Shown: positions 8,364 through 13,248 of the stretch, piece after piece
Layout of the letters: each line of letters opens with the position of its first letter
How positions within the stretch are numbered: position 1 is the first letter of the stretch
Sequence record: NC_028903.1
Source of the DNA: Escherichia phage 172-1
Direction: 5' to 3' (one strand)
DNA: 64,000 bases
Made by a program: the position numbers and the translations under genes
The notes under the pieces: model-generated
Told to the model about the DNA's origin: nothing
What the model saw: only the letters and a program-made list of their open reading frames with translations
Database searches by the model: none

Positions 8364-8855
8364 TTATTTACTGGCCTTGATGCAGTTGGCTAAATTAATG
8401 TGAACGGTATAAACAGCGTTATCAGCGTTATTGTAAACAGTAGTCGCAATCATCGACTGATTAACCGGGCCATAACTGACCAGATTCGTGACAGCTTTCG
8501 CATGGCTGTAACGTTGTACAGTGCCATACGTCACCATATCCGCATCGTTATCAGTACGCTTGAGAACTAGATCACTGTTAGACTGATTGTCTAGTGTTTT
8601 GGTACTAACGACCAGACCATCACGGGAAACGTTACTAAATTTAACCTTTAAAACGACCTGATTGGTGTCACTATCAGCACCATTGCAAATCATCCAACCT
8701 TTATTGATGGAACTAACGAAGACACTAGCCGCATCAGTTGCAGGAGCAGGACTAGCAACAGCCTTATCAGGAAAGGAAGTTACCAGCGCACTAACACCGA
8801 TCGCGGCGACTAGTGCATAACTTGCCAGATTAATCATCTGCATTGGTTTAGTCAT
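8364..8855 (-). CDS. secreted early protein (signal peptide)
   Basis: 163 aa; N-terminal MTKPMQMINLASYALVAAIGVSALV... signal-like segment. Confidence 0.5.
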   Translation of the reverse strand: MTKPMQMINLASYALVAAIGVSALVTSFPDKAVASPAPATDAASVFVSSINKGWMICNGADSDTNQVVLKVKFSNVSRDGLVVSTKTLDNQSNSDLVLKRTDNDADMVTYGTVQRYSHAKAVTNLVSYGPVNQSMIATTVYNNADNAVYTVHINLANCIKASK

Positions 8856-8890
8856 TTGTGAAGCCTCATTGATATGTAATAGATAGGGAT

Positions 8891-8919
8891 ATAATAGGAC
8901 ACGCTTTCTTACATTGCAA
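8891..8919 (-). promoter_or_regulatory. sigma70-like promoter (TTGCAA-N17-TATTAT) for operon 8855..7511
   Basis: Hexamers read on minus strand ~30 nt upstream of start. Confidence 0.5.
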
Positions 8920-9154
8920 CCATCTTCCTAACTTTCTTTCTTTCTACTAAAAGTAGCGCCATTGAACTTACTAGTCCTATTTCTTGGGCTTAACTTGCTA
9001 TCAGTGAACGATTCGACTACTTCACAAACGATCAGAACAAGTAAAGGAAATACTACAGCCATTGCCATCATTATTAAGATAATCATTTCTATCACTTCAA
9101 TCACTCAATCAATAGGCTTCAATTTACTACTACTTAACAAGGAAGACAAGCGAC

Positions 9155-9222
9155 CACGGGTAAACTATTTCTACTATATAGGACGGGGCATACAACAACC
9201 GCAGAACAGACCACGGGGAAAC
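9155..9222. repeat. three CACGGG(G)-core direct repeats (~28 bp period)
   Basis: ccacgggtaaac, gacggggcatac, ccacggggaaac read in sequence. Confidence 0.5.
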
Positions 9223-9565
9223 ATAGCAAGATAGTGCGGTAATAATATACCACTTAAATAATTGTATAACTCAAACATCAAAGATCATTCGCTACGCTCA
9301 TGCACGCTGAAAAAGAAAGTAATAAAAGAAATAATAACATACATCAATCATTATCCACTTAATTAATACATACATCATTATTGCACTCATAATAATAACT
9401 ATTGAAACTATTTACAATCAAACTATGGGGGAAGTGGGTAGTAACTAGGGGGTATTATTAGCCTATTCATAGTGCCTTAATCTGATTGCTATACAGTGAC
9501 TAGCCTTTCACTCACTCTTTAAAGGGGAACTAAATAAACGGGTAGGTAATGAATAGGATGGTATA

Positions 9566-9605
9566 CACGGGGAAAGAATAACGGGGAGTAGGCACGGGGA
9601 AAGGT
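9566..9605. repeat. three tandem ~14 bp repeats (c)ACGGGGA(AAG)
   Basis: cacggggaaagaat / aacggggagtagg / cacggggaaaggt. Confidence 0.55.
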
Positions 9606-9787
9606 TGGAACGTGGAAGGAGGTGTAAAGGCATTGCCAATAACCATTTTTTATTTGAGGACTCCCCCTTTTTAACAATTCGCCGCAGAGCGCCCAGCCCC
9701 ACTCGGTCAAATCAGAATTTTAAACAGATATATACATCTTTATTTTTTATAAATCTGTATTTTAAACTGTTATATATAAGGTTAAGT

Positions 9788-9949
9788 ATGAATCTAATTA
9801 AAGTATTTAGACGGATGAAGTGTAAGCACAATTACTATCTTCTTCGTAAAGCTTACGGGGATGAAAGGATACATGGTTTGTACCTATCAACATGGAAGTG
9901 TAAGGAATGTGGTAAGTTGAGATTCAGTACATGGGTGGATAGGCCTTAA
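9788..9949 (+). CDS. small zinc-ribbon-like protein
   Basis: 53 aa from ATG 9788; CKHN...CKEC motif pair. Confidence 0.35.
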   Translation: MNLIKVFRRMKCKHNYYLLRKAYGDERIHGLYLSTWKCKECGKLRFSTWVDRP

Positions 9950-9954
9950 CATGA

Positions 9955-10050
9955 CATGGCCTTTATGAGAGTACCCTTTACTTCAGAGTACACGGGTTGT
10001 TGGTATGAGGGTGCCTTTACGGGTTGGTCTTATGATGTGCCCTTTATACT
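9955..10050. repeat. iteron-like direct repeats TATGA(G/T)nGTGCC(C)TTTA(C/T) x3-4
   Basis: Copies at ~9964, 10004 and 10031, with a partial copy at 9955. Confidence 0.5.
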
Positions 10051-10168
10051 TTTATTCAGAGGATAAGAATATGAGGTTTTTAAAAGAACTACACTCCTTG
10101 ATTTATAAGGACATAGTGTACTCAGTATCCCGCAATGCATGGTTCTACCAAAAAGGTGGCAACGGTGA

Positions 10169-10459
10169 ATGGGTAGATTGAATCTTACTCAGAGGAGAAG
10201 AATTATGAATTTAGTATTAGACTTTTTATCAGAGATGGTGCCTCGGTTCAGAACGGAGACATACGCTTTCGTAGTCAACAGTGACTCTGAAGATGGGATG
10301 GAAGCTACGTGCTTAGGTCGTCTTGTTGATTTAGATGATGAAACAGGTTTCGATATTACAATTGATGTGAGTAGCTTAGGTTGGCTCTTCTTCAGAGCAT
10401 TCCGCACTTACAAAGTAGAAACATATAAAGATTACAGTAAGGGAGATACAGATGAATAA
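10169..10459 (+). CDS. hypothetical protein
   Basis: 96 aa; alternative start at 10205 has the better GAGGAG RBS. Confidence 0.4.
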   Translation: MGRLNLTQRRRIMNLVLDFLSEMVPRFRTETYAFVVNSDSEDGMEATCLGRLVDLDDETGFDITIDVSSLGWLFFRAFRTYKVETYKDYSKGDTDE

Positions 10460-11015
10460 TTTAATCAAAGCGATGGACCTTAACGAGTATAATTCACAGC
10501 TATGTCGCTCTGGTTGTAGCTTACAGCATTTAGAAACTATGGGAAACATCTCAGGATTGGCTGTACAAGATTTGTATAGTGGAAGTATTCTTAAACCAAA
10601 TATTACGGAGAACAAAAACATGTTAGATTTGATTCATACTACTCGCCCTAATTCTAAAACACAACCATCTACTCTGGAAGTAGTTGAATACGAATCTACT
10701 AAACATGACCACCTCCCTGACTATGCTCGTGCAATGATTGAGATGATTGAAGAAGCTGAATATGAAATGCTCCATGATTACATTACCTCCAAAGATGAAT
10801 GGCATCGTGATGTTCGAATTGAAGAAGATGGTACAGAAACAATTACGTGGATTCACAAGAGTGAGTTAGTAGACGACGCACTGCGAGACTACGAAAAATT
10901 TTTGGTCGACGGCTCTATTCTTTTAGAGGAAGAGAAGGGTGTAGAACTTCCGTGGGAGGGTGAGGTAGTTACTTTAGGTAAGATGTTTAACCTGTCCGTT
11001 GGTGATTGTAAGTAA
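10452..11015 (+). CDS. acidic hypothetical protein
   Basis: 187 aa, D/E-rich. Confidence 0.45.
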   Translation: MNNLIKAMDLNEYNSQLCRSGCSLQHLETMGNISGLAVQDLYSGSILKPNITENKNMLDLIHTTRPNSKTQPSTLEVVEYESTKHDHLPDYARAMIEMIEEAEYEMLHDYITSKDEWHRDVRIEEDGTETITWIHKSELVDDALRDYEKFLVDGSILLEEEKGVELPWEGEVVTLGKMFNLSVGDCK

Positions 11016-11020
11016 TGTTT

Positions 11021-11041
11021 GCCTCCCTTGGGAGGCTTTTT
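11021..11041 (+). terminator. rho-independent terminator
   Basis: GCCTCC / GGAGGC hairpin followed by TTTTT. Confidence 0.55.
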
Positions 11042-11071
11042 GTGTTGTTGATAATGTAGAAGGAGTATAAA

Positions 11072-11545
11072 ATGTTTGGAGAAAACGGAGAACTCACACC
11101 TGCACAGGTAGCTGAGATTACAGGAAGATTACCCGGAGTAACGGAAGAACTTGAAAGCCGTGGTATGAACCCAAGCAATGGGAAGTTTCAAAAGGGAAAT
11201 AAATTCGGACGACCCAGAGGTAGTAGAGGTAAACTGACACAATTAATGTTGGACCGTGTTGCTGCAAGTCATTTGTCTCCTGATGAAGTGTTAATTCAAA
11301 TTTACGAAGATCCTAATATTCCACCTGATCTTAGATTCAAGGCTGCATCAAAAGTTGCAGATCTGGTATATCCTAAGGCGGCCTCTGTTGAAGTTAAGAT
11401 TGAGGAAGAGAATGTAATTAACGAAGAATCATTGAATGCACAAATCAAGGACTTCTTGACTGGAGCACTTGGTATCGATGTTATGCCTCCAGAAGAAGAC
11501 AACTCTGAGGACGCTGAAAAGGGGGAGGAAGCGGACGAGAGTTAA
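11072..11545 (+). CDS. putative terminase small subunit (position-based)
   Basis: 157 aa, directly upstream of large terminase; basic mid-region and acidic C-terminus; no definitive motif. Confidence 0.3.
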   Translation: MFGENGELTPAQVAEITGRLPGVTEELESRGMNPSNGKFQKGNKFGRPRGSRGKLTQLMLDRVAASHLSPDEVLIQIYEDPNIPPDLRFKAASKVADLVYPKAASVEVKIEEENVINEESLNAQIKDFLTGALGIDVMPPEEDNSEDAEKGEEADES

Positions 11546-11667
11546 TTAAAGGAAACAGGGAGCTGTCGAAGATCATCTGATTAACAATCTAAGGGTTGTT
11601 ATAGTTTTATTGCCACGATGTTCTTTTACAGTGTACCCTTGTAGTGGAGAGGGGAGGTTCTTTGACG

Positions 11668-11692
11668 AAGGGACTTTCCCTTTTCTATTTTT
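11668..11692 (+). terminator. hairpin with T-run (attenuator-like) upstream of terL
   Basis: AAGGGA / TCCCTT stem followed by ttctattttt. Confidence 0.3.
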
Positions 11693-11706
11693 AAACTGGA
11701 GGAAGT

Positions 11707-13248
11707 ATGTCATTAGATAAACAAATTTATGAAGCTCTAACTGGTAACAATCTTAGTGTAGACGAAAAGAAAGCACTATTGAATATGTTGAAAGAGCGTG
11801 ACCAATGGAGGAAGTATAATAGGATTTTGTCTTTCAAGGCGTATGACTTCCAAAAGAAATTTTATGCAGCAGGATTGAAGCATCGCTTTAGATTCTTGTG
11901 TGCAGCGAACCGTGTTGGTAAATCTTATAGCGAGGCATACGAGTTTGCTTGTCATGTCACAGGTCGCTACCCAACTTGGTGGACAGGATATAAATTTAAA
12001 AGACCTATCTTAGCATGGGCAGTTGGTATTACAGGGGATTCCACAAGGAAGGTATTGCAAAAGGAATTGTTTGGTACACCTATCGGAAAGGATACAAATT
12101 TATTAGGGACAGGTGTCATTCCTCGTGATGCTATCGTCATTGATACGATAGAACGAGATGGTAACAAACTTCAAATCGTACAAATCAAACATCAAAATGA
12201 GAGAGGAGAGTTTGACGGTTTAAGTACATTAGAATTCCGTTCAACCCAACAGGGTGAACACACATTGATGGGTGCAACAGTTGACTATATATGGCTTGAT
12301 GAAGAGGATCCATATGAGTCTATGGCTATATTCGCACAGTGCGTCACACGTACACTCACAACTAAAGGTCTAGTTACAATTACAGCTACACCAGAGAACG
12401 GTTTAACTGAACTGGTAGATAAATTTATGAAAGGTGAAGGGGATGAGAACACAGGTTCTCTATATTTCCAGAATGCTTCTTGGTGGGATGCTCATGCAGA
12501 CCTAGGTGGACACATCACTGACCAAGATATAAAAGATATGACTGAAGGTATTCCAGCATGGCAGTTAGAGATGCGTTCAAAAGGTATGCCATTGTTAGGA
12601 AGTGGTTTGATATATGATGTATCGGATGACACAATTAAATGTGAACCATTCGAAATTCCTGATACGTGGAAACGTGTCTGTGCAATTGATATTGGTATCG
12701 ATCACCCAACTGCTGCTGTTTGGACAGCTTACGATGCAAACACGGATACTATCTATGTTTACGACTCATATAAAGAAGGTGGCTTTACTCCAGTGTATCA
12801 TGCTCCAGCTATTAATGGTCGTGGTCAGTGGATTCCTGTCATCCTACCGCATGATGCGGACAATACTGAGAAAGGTAGTGGTTCATCTGTTGCTCAATTC
12901 TATAAGAATGCAGGAGTTAACGTACAGAGTGAGACCTTCTACAACAAAATTGGAATGGATGGTAAAAAGAACTTCTTTGTAGAACCGGGAATCACAGATA
13001 TCCGAGAAAGAATGATGAGTGGACGCTTTAAAGTCTTTAACACAGCCGCTAACGCTAAGCTATTCGAAGAGAAAGCTAGATATCACCGTAAGGTTGGTAA
13101 GATTATTAAAGAACATGATGACTTAATGGATGCAATGCGCTATTCAGCGTGCTCTGTTACACATCGTGGTCGCTCTAAGCATGATGTTAGCTACGGAAGC
13201 GCTTCTTTGTATGAGGCAAACGTAAGCAGATGGAATCAGAGCTACTAA
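11707..13248 (+). CDS. terL: terminase large subunit
   Basis: 513 aa; Walker A-like AANRVGKSY, Walker B-like IWLDEE; precedes portal. Confidence 0.85.
   Translation: MSLDKQIYEALTGNNLSVDEKKALLNMLKERDQWRKYNRILSFKAYDFQKKFYAAGLKHRFRFLCAANRVGKSYSEAYEFACHVTGRYPTWWTGYKFKRPILAWAVGITGDSTRKVLQKELFGTPIGKDTNLLGTGVIPRDAIVIDTIERDGNKLQIVQIKHQNERGEFDGLSTLEFRSTQQGEHTLMGATVDYIWLDEEDPYESMAIFAQCVTRTLTTKGLVTITATPENGLTELVDKFMKGEGDENTGSLYFQNASWWDAHADLGGHITDQDIKDMTEGIPAWQLEMRSKGMPLLGSGLIYDVSDDTIKCEPFEIPDTWKRVCAIDIGIDHPTAAVWTAYDANTDTIYVYDSYKEGGFTPVYHAPAINGRGQWIPVILPHDADNTEKGSGSSVAQFYKNAGVNVQSETFYNKIGMDGKKNFFVEPGITDIRERMMSGRFKVFNTAANAKLFEEKARYHRKVGKIIKEHDDLMDAMRYSACSVTHRGRSKHDVSYGSASLYEANVSRWNQSY

Follow-up and report, generated by a model that had tools for sequence, protein, structure and literature searches.

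Repeated asymmetric boxes between the cut site and terS, the gene of the small terminase subunit, are a feature of several phages, as seen in R3, R2 and R1 of lambda cosB, pacL and pacR of SPP1 and the hexamers of P1 pac. In lambda, R3 is inverted relative to R2. Another kind of array is present at the ends of phage T7, in which 11 plus-strand copies of CCTAAAG occur in the first 340 nucleotides, in or beside the terminal repeat, at a period of 13 bp or its multiples. These are the SRL and SRR arrays of Dunn and Studier and, to our knowledge, have no established function. Here, we describe an array of short direct repeats at 9936-10046 in a stretch of 64,000 nucleotides from Escherichia phage 172-1 (NC_028903.1), the whole of which is called the window. 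The array is non-random, occurs at the left genome end only, is conserved among related phages and is kept independently of its coding context. It is tentatively read as a protein-docking array for genome-end or packaging functions, with the small terminase TerS as its most likely binder; this reading is given a little less than an even chance.

The array resembles, in kind, the known terminus-associated or terminase-site repeat arrays. As in T7, it belongs to a podovirus with a short direct terminal repeat (DTR), is built of a short asymmetric box on the plus strand, and has copies inside the repeat as well as in the adjoining unique sequence. A second family at this locus, ACGGG(G/T), straddles the junction of the genome ends as the T7 arrays do, being a short box on one strand within and flanking the DTR. 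The TGR-N4-SCCTTWA array itself shares this arrangement only partly, as it is on the left side alone and 240 bp from the DTR. It further differs from T7 in that the box is another one and is bipartite, a promoter and a gene stand between the DTR and the array, and the DTR holds one full unit, which is inverted. The likeness to the terminase small-subunit sites would lie in the repeated asymmetric boxes, the co-inheritance with terS and the position near a genome end; the box nearest to the end is also inverted here, as in lambda. Unlike the lambda, SPP1 and P1 sites, the array has five to seven copies at a tighter head-to-tail spacing, and the genome ends in a DTR of the T7 type and not in cos or headful ends; an IHF site was not identified either.

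The genome end and the repeat unit

A comparison of 9000-12000 with phage records gave 97 matches at 80-99% identity, nearly all of them Escherichia or Shigella phages, with MN05 and NJ01 at the top. NJ01 is placed in the genus Kuravirus (subfamily Gordonclarkvirinae, phiEco32 group), and by these matches the window can be assigned to a Kuravirus (phiEco32-like) coliphage. When 9500-10215 was aligned with the first 600-700 nucleotides of phiEco32, Paul and SU10, base 1 of these phages (AGCCTTTCTC...) corresponded to 9502 of the window. Positions 8850-9694 align with the phiEco32 right end together with the terminal repeat located there. Taken together, the left-end and right-end alignments indicate that the window is a circularly joined assembly of a linear DTR genome, the two ends meeting at 9501/9502. 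The right-end unique sequence runs straight into a single copy of a 193-bp repeat, and a DTR of 193 bp is also annotated in the Paul record. The array begins 242 bp and ends 352 bp past the DTR boundary, about 1 kb upstream of terS. Its parts are as follows.

9502-9694, plus strand: DTR, 193 bp, single collapsed copy, placed by alignments to the phiEco32, Paul and SU10 ends
9625-9638, minus strand: inverted full 14-nt unit TGGCAATGCCTTTA inside the DTR (DTR position 124-137), the fifth strict match
9936-9980, plus strand: first cluster, units 0, 1 and 2 head to tail
9936-9949, plus strand: unit 0, TGGATAGGCCTTAA, overlapping the end of gene 1 (final codons and stop)
9952-9965, plus strand: unit 1, TGACATGGCCTTTA
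9966-9980, plus strand: unit 2, TGAGAGTACCCTTTA, a 15-nt variant
9981-10005, plus strand: spacer with a TTCAGAG box and ACACGGGTTG (holding the first ACGGGTTG), the place of small-gene insertion in relatives
10006-10046, plus strand: second cluster, made of unit 3, the second ACGGGTTG (10019-10026) and unit 4
10006-10019, plus strand: unit 3, TGAGGGTGCCTTTA
10033-10046, plus strand: unit 4, TGATGTGCCCTTTA

The unit was derived from clustered CCTTWA cores of 16 related sequences, which yielded 73 distinct 21-mers; the upstream flank was not used for anchoring. An upstream half-site emerged independently, with A or G at position -9 (68/73), T at -8 (67/73), G at -7 (68/73) and A or G at -6 (68/73). 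Of the 73 units, 71 have G or C at position -1, and the four bases between the half-sites carry merely 0.10-0.45 bit of information. The unit is bipartite and asymmetric, RTGR-N4-S-CCTTWA, and measures 14-15 bp instead of the ~17 bp given in the initial annotation. Two conserved half-sites with a free centre form the pattern of a two-contact protein site, as judged from sequence.

The pattern ATGA-N3-6-CCTTTA has four matches on the two strands of the whole 64-kb window, all of which are within 9951-10047. A degenerate form, TGRNNNNSCCTTWA, is matched five times against 1.06 +/- 0.93 expected, a number reached in 0 of 100 shuffles; the direct repeats of the initial annotation are real and non-random. 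All five matches fall in 9625-10046, that is, in 420 bp beginning inside the DTR, and no match to the strict unit was found in 13.6 kb of NJ01, the closest relative, outside the coverage of the window. The inverted DTR unit has the same position and strand in phiEco32, Paul, SU10, ES17 and O18-011. The copies initially placed at ~9964, ~10004 and ~10031 were all recovered, along with further units at 9936-9949 and 9952-9965. The motif said to recur twice in the spacers is ACGGGTTG, which was found at 9992 and 10019 and has one further copy in 64 kb.

The starts of units 0-4 are 16, 14, 40 and 27 bp apart. Across the relatives, two spacings prevail, 14 bp with 19 cases and 16 bp with 26: CCTTTA is directly followed by TGR (period 14), and CCTTAA by two additional bases before the next unit (period 16). 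With spacings mostly of 14 and 16 bp there is no helical phasing, and the description of the repeats as phased had to be given up.

With its tandem direct repeats, short non-coding setting and neighbouring AT-rich DNA, the array also recalls the iterons of plasmids and phages (lambda ori, P1, pSC101, R6K), and it had indeed been called iteron-like and possibly origin-binding. An origin of this type would consist of initiator-binding repeats beside an AT-rich unwinding region. An AT-rich stretch is present at 9709-9787, 150-250 bp upstream of the array, and the homologous left non-coding region of the distant relatives GAP52 and A24 has three perfect DnaA boxes and further repeat families. However, iterons are typically ~17-22 bp long and initiator-bound, whereas the units here are shorter, with four unconstrained central bases and an unphased 14/16-bp spacing. 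A search of Pfam and PHROGs gave no Rep-, O- or helicase-loader-like match among the genes of 9788-11545, and thus no cognate initiator gene among the five downstream genes. The five matches of TTWTNCACA in the window include none between 977 and 23388, leaving the array region free of DnaA boxes. Moreover, the AT-rich stretch is a promoter region with gene 1 between it and the array, and the DnaA boxes of GAP52 are ~900 bp from its array. For this phage group, a T7-type replication is assumed (PMC9965538). An iteron-type origin is considered highly unlikely, and a plasmid-style origin is probably less likely than a docking site for genome-end or packaging functions. A partition-like role, also suggested at first, found no ParA/ParB or ParM/ParR match among the five downstream genes, and the phage is lytic.

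Conservation in phiEco32-like clades

The array is present in all 15 sequences examined from Kuravirus, Nieuwekanaalvirus and Suseptimavirus, with four to seven units in two clusters. The relatives comprised NJ01, phiEco32, Paul, SU10, ES17, KBNP1711 and O18-011, as well as LAMP, EK010, SU7, Bas86, UKE3, E20-1 and one IMG/VR contig. Conservation in related genomes, on which the initial annotation had made its proposal depend, was thus found in three genera. Among these sequences, the half-sites do not change, whereas unit number and central bases do. An exact 16-mer search of IMG/VR returned 28 loci, 4 of which are Kuravirus-like; the others are chance matches in coding DNA. A description of the array was not found in the literature on SU10, YF01, 7-11, Paul and Privateer, a search that left the original phiEco32 papers (PMC2587145, PMC3275717) outside.

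The relatives carry different tiny genes at the array, because of which it appears to behave as a cassette-insertion hotspot. In phiEco32 and ES17, phi32_2 is inserted between the clusters; KBNP1711 has a 26-codon hydrophobic open reading frame (ORF) and O18-011 a 49-codon membrane peptide. In this respect, the array is like the promoter-early stem-loop (PeSL) cassettes of T4-type phages, in which small early genes of variable kind are flanked by recurring intergenic modules, with changes of gene content at the repeats; unlike them, its units have no detectable promoter or stem-loop, and there is a single locus per genome. The units could also be passive repeats, either junctions of the hotspot or remnants of a Pro-Leu/Pro-Phe linker, kept by recombination or gene conversion and binding nothing. 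The tiny genes at the clusters (phi32_2, a 36-aa ORF in the window, and those of 26 aa in KBNP1711 and 49 aa in O18-011), the variable copy number and the units that encode a PL/PF-rich linker of a gene-3-like protein in two distant sequences, L065 and L066, speak for such an origin. Nevertheless, the half-sites are near-invariant while the four central bases turn over, and this is so in three genera, as well as across families with a drifted motif. In ~77 kb there is no other occurrence of the unit, its inverted DTR copy is conserved, and neutral remnants would be expected to decay in non-coding DNA at such divergence. Passive repeats are, on balance, quite unlikely.

Two smaller features were seen at the same place. 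An 18-bp palindromic mini-insert, AGTCATCAAAGATGACGT, with the arms GTCATC/GATGAC, sits in the free centre of units that differ from phage to phage, namely at ~445-462 in ES17, ~835-855 in O18-011 and ~825-845 in KBNP1711, and in the loci L030/L051; its 3' arm recreates an ATGAC half-site. In phiEco32, the sequence TTAACTTTA at ~465-490, just upstream of the phi32_2 Shine-Dalgarno sequence, is identical to the 'epsilon' translational enhancer of T7 gene 10.

More distant genomes were located via a TerS-like protein. Array homologues were found in every phiEco32-like clade examined except L067 (TerS 62% identical), where no unit of the tested motifs is present, and they are always on the same strand as terS, in the region from the left end to this gene. 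The core is sCCTTWA in the Kuravirus-like sequences (TerS at least 91% identical) and also in L065/L066 (TerS 75-78%), which have units at two places. Two or three of these are immediately upstream of terS. The others are in frame within the 5' part of a 269/321-aa gene, at a period of 15 or 27, and encode a Pro-Leu/Pro-Phe-rich linker; the protein has a C-terminal part homologous to gene 3 of the window and a CxxC...HxC motif. In the sequences L054-56 (TerS 66%), sCC(A/C)TTCAT boxes are found between a gene-3-like gene and terS, and the RTGR half is missing at the equivalent position. The Grimontviridae (7-11, GAP52, A24, Privateer and BUCT695; TerS 48-50%) have ATGA-N4-sCCATC(A/T)A units that end 30-150 bp upstream of terS, and PJNS034 (TerS 43-46%) has TGGCATGWA units. 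Outside the Kuravirus-like clades, the arrays are 50-200 bp upstream of terS in several clades. In 7-11, the array is just upstream of 1637-1662, which, in our own reading of the sequence, fits the late-promoter consensus GTAAtg-16-aCTA for P1 (PMC8948821). The array is thus intergenic in Kuravirus, inside a coding gene in L065/L066 and upstream of the late promoter P1 in 7-11. As the motif is kept in these differing contexts, selection would therefore act on the nucleic acid itself, and not on a peptide or on one transcript.

Some local structures accompany the distant arrays. In L065 (2930-2975) and L066 (2935-2975), an intrinsic-terminator-like hairpin ends the early left operon; its 5' arm is the last box (GCCTT...), which can pair with AAGGC further downstream, and a T run comes next. 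In the uncultivated clade of L054 (2385-2450), L055 (2395-2460) and L056 (2395-2455), a conserved GC-rich segment of ~65 nt, GCGTAAGCGACACGCCGACGACCCCGCGTAGCTGGGGGCGGAGGTGGAACCGGCGCG, is flanked by the box array on one side and, on the other, by a TATAATGAAAG element upstream of terS, and may be a structured element.

The closeness of several arrays to terS raises the question of whether the boxes serve the packaging operon's late (phage-sigma) promoter, be it as activator sites upstream of it or as architectural sites. Such sites would agree with arrays ending 30-150 bp before the late promoter or terS in 7-11, GAP52, A24, Privateer, BUCT695 and L054-56, and with the two or three units at the same place in L065/L066. 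On the other hand, the arrays of Kuravirus, Nieuwekanaalvirus and Suseptimavirus are ~1 kb upstream of the late promoter, from which two genes and a terminator separate them, and are followed by no gp36-type element. Also, the late promoters of phiEco32 are single-element ones, active in vitro with the gp36 holoenzyme only (PMC8948821). A role of this kind is very unlikely.

An early regulator is another candidate, and the initial annotation had named the zinc-ribbon protein of 9788-9949 (gene 1) as a binder. The array would then be an operator or roadblock array through which such a regulator controls the left early operon. Gene 1 always adjoins the array in the E. coli Kuravirus-like phages, its stop codon being within unit 0 in many of them; small zinc-ribbon proteins are capable of DNA binding, and the array is between early genes (PMC4281155). 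Yet no gene-1 homologue was detected in the Salmonella, Cronobacter, Proteus and Aeromonas phages or in L054-56 and L065-66, all of which have arrays; by tblastn, gene 1 was found only in E. coli/Shigella Kuravirus-like phages, apart from a few weak unrelated matches. Unit 0 is lost where the C-terminus of gene 1 differs (KBNP1711, O18-011), the inverted DTR unit has no obvious operator role, and the boxes are asymmetric and unphased. Because gene 1 is confined to the E. coli clades, its protein is unlikely to be the general binder, though it could be a lineage-specific partner. An operator is the foremost of the alternatives and still an unlikely one.

The array may instead act in the early transcript, as a mini-ORF relay or as sites for an RNA-binding protein or boxA-like sites. 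In the relay, units would be read as AUG-x-x-Pro-Leu-UGA (stop and following AUG sharing bases as AUGA) or as ...Pro-UAA, and could couple ribosomes from gene 1 onward or work in the manner of the lambda bar minigenes. All the units are on the sense strand, and A or G at position -9 in 68 of the 73 makes RTG compatible with a start codon. CCTTTA is directly followed by TGA at period 14, CCTTAA brings its own stop and then two extra bases at period 16, and gene 1 itself terminates in Pro-stop. Units of the Grimontviridae read M-T-S-H-Q with third-position variation. A switch of Ser codons between TCC and AGC in 7-11 was considered as proof of coding and rejected, as the sequence downstream is common to both AGC units, which probably go back to one duplication. 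The sequence GCCCUUUA, one base off the rrn boxA core GCUCUUUA, is also counted in favour of a role in RNA.

Like the lambda bar minigenes and upstream mini-ORFs, the units form 2-5-codon ORFs in an early phage transcript, some of which stop after two codons; unlike them, they lack Shine-Dalgarno sequences, one clade, L054-56, has not kept the start codon (with the RTGR half), and conservation follows the nucleotide and not the codon position. CCTTTA, CAT and CWA (CCT-TTA, CAT-CAA) are invariant even at wobble positions. Several units (in Paul, LAMP, SU7 and phiEco32) have an in-frame TAG, or TGG for TGA. A simulated relay fails to reach gene 2 reliably, and the stop-then-start order follows automatically from the unit. 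The array of 7-11 is upstream of the sole mapped rightward promoter. Folding of 9930-10075 is not above shuffles (z = -0.49 on the plus strand, +0.27 on the minus strand), and an Rfam scan of the whole window gave no family at gathering thresholds. An element in RNA ranks second among the alternatives and is likewise unlikely. Its special form, a chain of overlapping 2-5-codon minigenes that starts from the Pro-stop of gene 1 and stalls or recycles ribosomes, or sequesters peptidyl-tRNA in the lambda bar manner, is highly improbable; if true, it would tune host translation or the downstream early genes, and a role of the same sequence in DNA could exist besides. Titration of NusB/NusE by boxA-like (GCCCUUUA) sites acting as a sponge is even less likely than the minigene chain.

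TerS as the candidate binder

A protein-binding array remains the most economical reading of the sequence. Its upkeep independent of context, its location at the left end only and the inverted copy in the DTR together point to an element of the terminus and packaging module that is recognised at the level of DNA; protein binding, TerS as the binder and the packaging role are what we infer from these features. According to this reading, an oligomeric sequence-specific protein would dock on bipartite boxes 14-16 bp apart. Subunits of TerS, whose gene is ~1 kb downstream, would occupy the direct boxes, the inverted DTR box and possibly the related CCC-Tn-A boxes of the DTR. Such occupancy could mark the concatemer junction for cutting by the large terminase TerL and for the initiation of packaging, in the way of gpNu1 on the cosB R sites of lambda.

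The choice of TerS is guided by its gene, as a terS-like gene is the sole neighbour present in every array-bearing locus examined; gene 1 was undetected in the distant array-bearing clades, all of which have terS. The four core variants run parallel to TerS identity (91-100%, 66%, ~49% and ~45%), a relation compatible with, and not specific to, TerS. The putative TerS of the window has a profile match to the solved small terminases 6w7t and 7joq (PaP3 and NV1; E = 0.0012 and 0.0037), and its homologue in YF01 is annotated as a putative TerS. It was reported that PaP3 TerS binds a cos oligonucleotide containing GGCCCCTTTCC (PMC9611059). Within the DTR of the window, the following boxes resemble the sCCCTTTA core of the unit.

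9643-9673, plus strand: two C-run/T-run/A boxes, CCATTTTTTA at 9643 and CCCTTTTTA at 9665, the most conserved part of the DTR

Comparable sequences are known from related phages: SU10 has CCCTTTTTTA-N10-CCCTTTTTTA at a distance of 21 nt from its terminal repeat's end (PMC4281155), and in YF01 the most conserved DTR positions are ~130-170 (PMC9965538). The likeness of GGCCCCTTTCC and of the CCC-Tn-A boxes to the core is suggestive only.

Several points weigh against TerS and a packaging role. The AF2 model of TerS is of low confidence (pLDDT 69, pTM 0.35), and its Foldseek search gave no significant match (E > 1), with PaP3 TerS at ranks 2-4. The distance between the DTR and the array varies, relatives such as phiEco32 and ES17 tolerate inserts of up to ~180 bp from one cluster to the other, and the copy number of the units ranges from 4 to 7. 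In Kuravirus, the array is within the early transcript and terS is 1 kb away. Several other clades have it right beside the late promoter or the terminator of terS, with which a transcriptional role is equally compatible. The drift of the motif would also follow the divergence of any phage protein, or neutral drift, and the analogy with T7 would name an architecture, not a mechanism.

The terminase recognition of T7-type DTR genomes is poorly defined, and TerS-DNA recognition has been called the least understood step of packaging (PMC9611059). This lineage offers a candidate recognition element that can be tracked phylogenetically, with a bipartite box, an inverted partner in the DTR and four natural variants; as these variants drift with TerS, specificity-swap experiments would be straightforward. 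Kuraviruses are also therapeutic phage candidates, for which the packaging signal matters in engineering and in the assessment of transduction risk. Even if the array is regulatory or acts in RNA, the genome end that is expressed first would have in it a conserved element so far undescribed.

Neighbouring sequence

The ACGGG(G/T) family extends over the right-end unique region, the DTR, gene 1 and the array spacers, and includes both copies of ACGGGTTG. ACGGG is the most enriched 5-mer of 9100-10100, with 10 copies observed vs 0.27 expected, and its DTR and right-end copies are kept in phiEco32. This family and the neighbouring genes and signals are listed below.

9156, 9183, 9213, 9538, 9567, 9581, 9594, 9855, 9992 and 10019, plus strand: ACGGG(G/T) family, 10 copies across the concatemer junction
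9709-9787, plus strand: AT-rich promoter-like segment upstream of gene 1
9788-9949, plus strand: gene 1, 53-aa zinc-ribbon-like protein (CxH...CxxC), phrog_7696, a weak match to a zinc-finger phrog
10071-10181, plus strand: accessory 36-codon ORF, MRFLKELHSLIYKDIVYSVSRNAWFYQKGGNGEWVD, with its own Shine-Dalgarno-like sequence, outside the array
10205-10459, plus strand: gene 2 (84 aa), left early operon
10452-11015, plus strand: gene 3 (187 aa), left early operon
11021-11041, plus strand: intrinsic terminator (GCCTCCCTTGGGAGGC and a T run)
near 11050-11060, plus strand: late gp36-type promoter element (GATAATGTAGA); terminator and element together span 11021-11062
11072-11545, plus strand: putative small terminase TerS, directly upstream of TerL (profile match, YF01 annotation)
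11707-13248, plus strand: large terminase TerL

The array had been placed between the ORFs 9788..9949 and 10169..10459. Its intergenic site stands, but the downstream gene most likely starts at 10205, and the 36-codon ORF intervenes. This ORF has no family match and occurs in some relatives only (NJ01, ES17). The flanking genes were rightly taken as early, being classed so by homology (SU10 paper, PMC4281155). The label 'ABC transporter', carried by many homologue records of gene 3 and by phrog_12176, has no support from Pfam or PDB sequences. A tRNA scan of the window found none.

As for transcription signals, a scan for sigma-70 promoters found none in the array, and the count for the region is under the shuffle mean. 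TATACT, conserved after the last unit, was discarded as a promoter, as it has no -35 element and is absent in Suseptimavirus. The gp36 late-promoter element tAATGTAtA has only near-matches (TAATGTGA) at the array, in the phiEco32/ES17 lineage, and none in the window. A Rho-utilisation (rut) site is unlikely, because the array has more G (31) than C (20). In the S2 table of SU10, the stretch homologous to 9709-9787 is a potential sigma-70 promoter, and the late promoter is entered as 'gttgataatgtagaaggag'. The promoter-like segment also contains a tandem duplication of 42 bp (9709-9734 / 9751-9776), which is common to NJ01 and missing from phiEco32, Paul and SU10; it may double the early left promoter.

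Lastly, the Crifsvirus phages GAP52 (462-633) and A24 (57-231) have three perfect DnaA boxes (TTATCCACA within ACTTATCCACAGG), together with several other repeat families, in a gene-free left region of ~1.3-1.7 kb. By its sequence, this region looks like an origin or a DnaA-titrating region.

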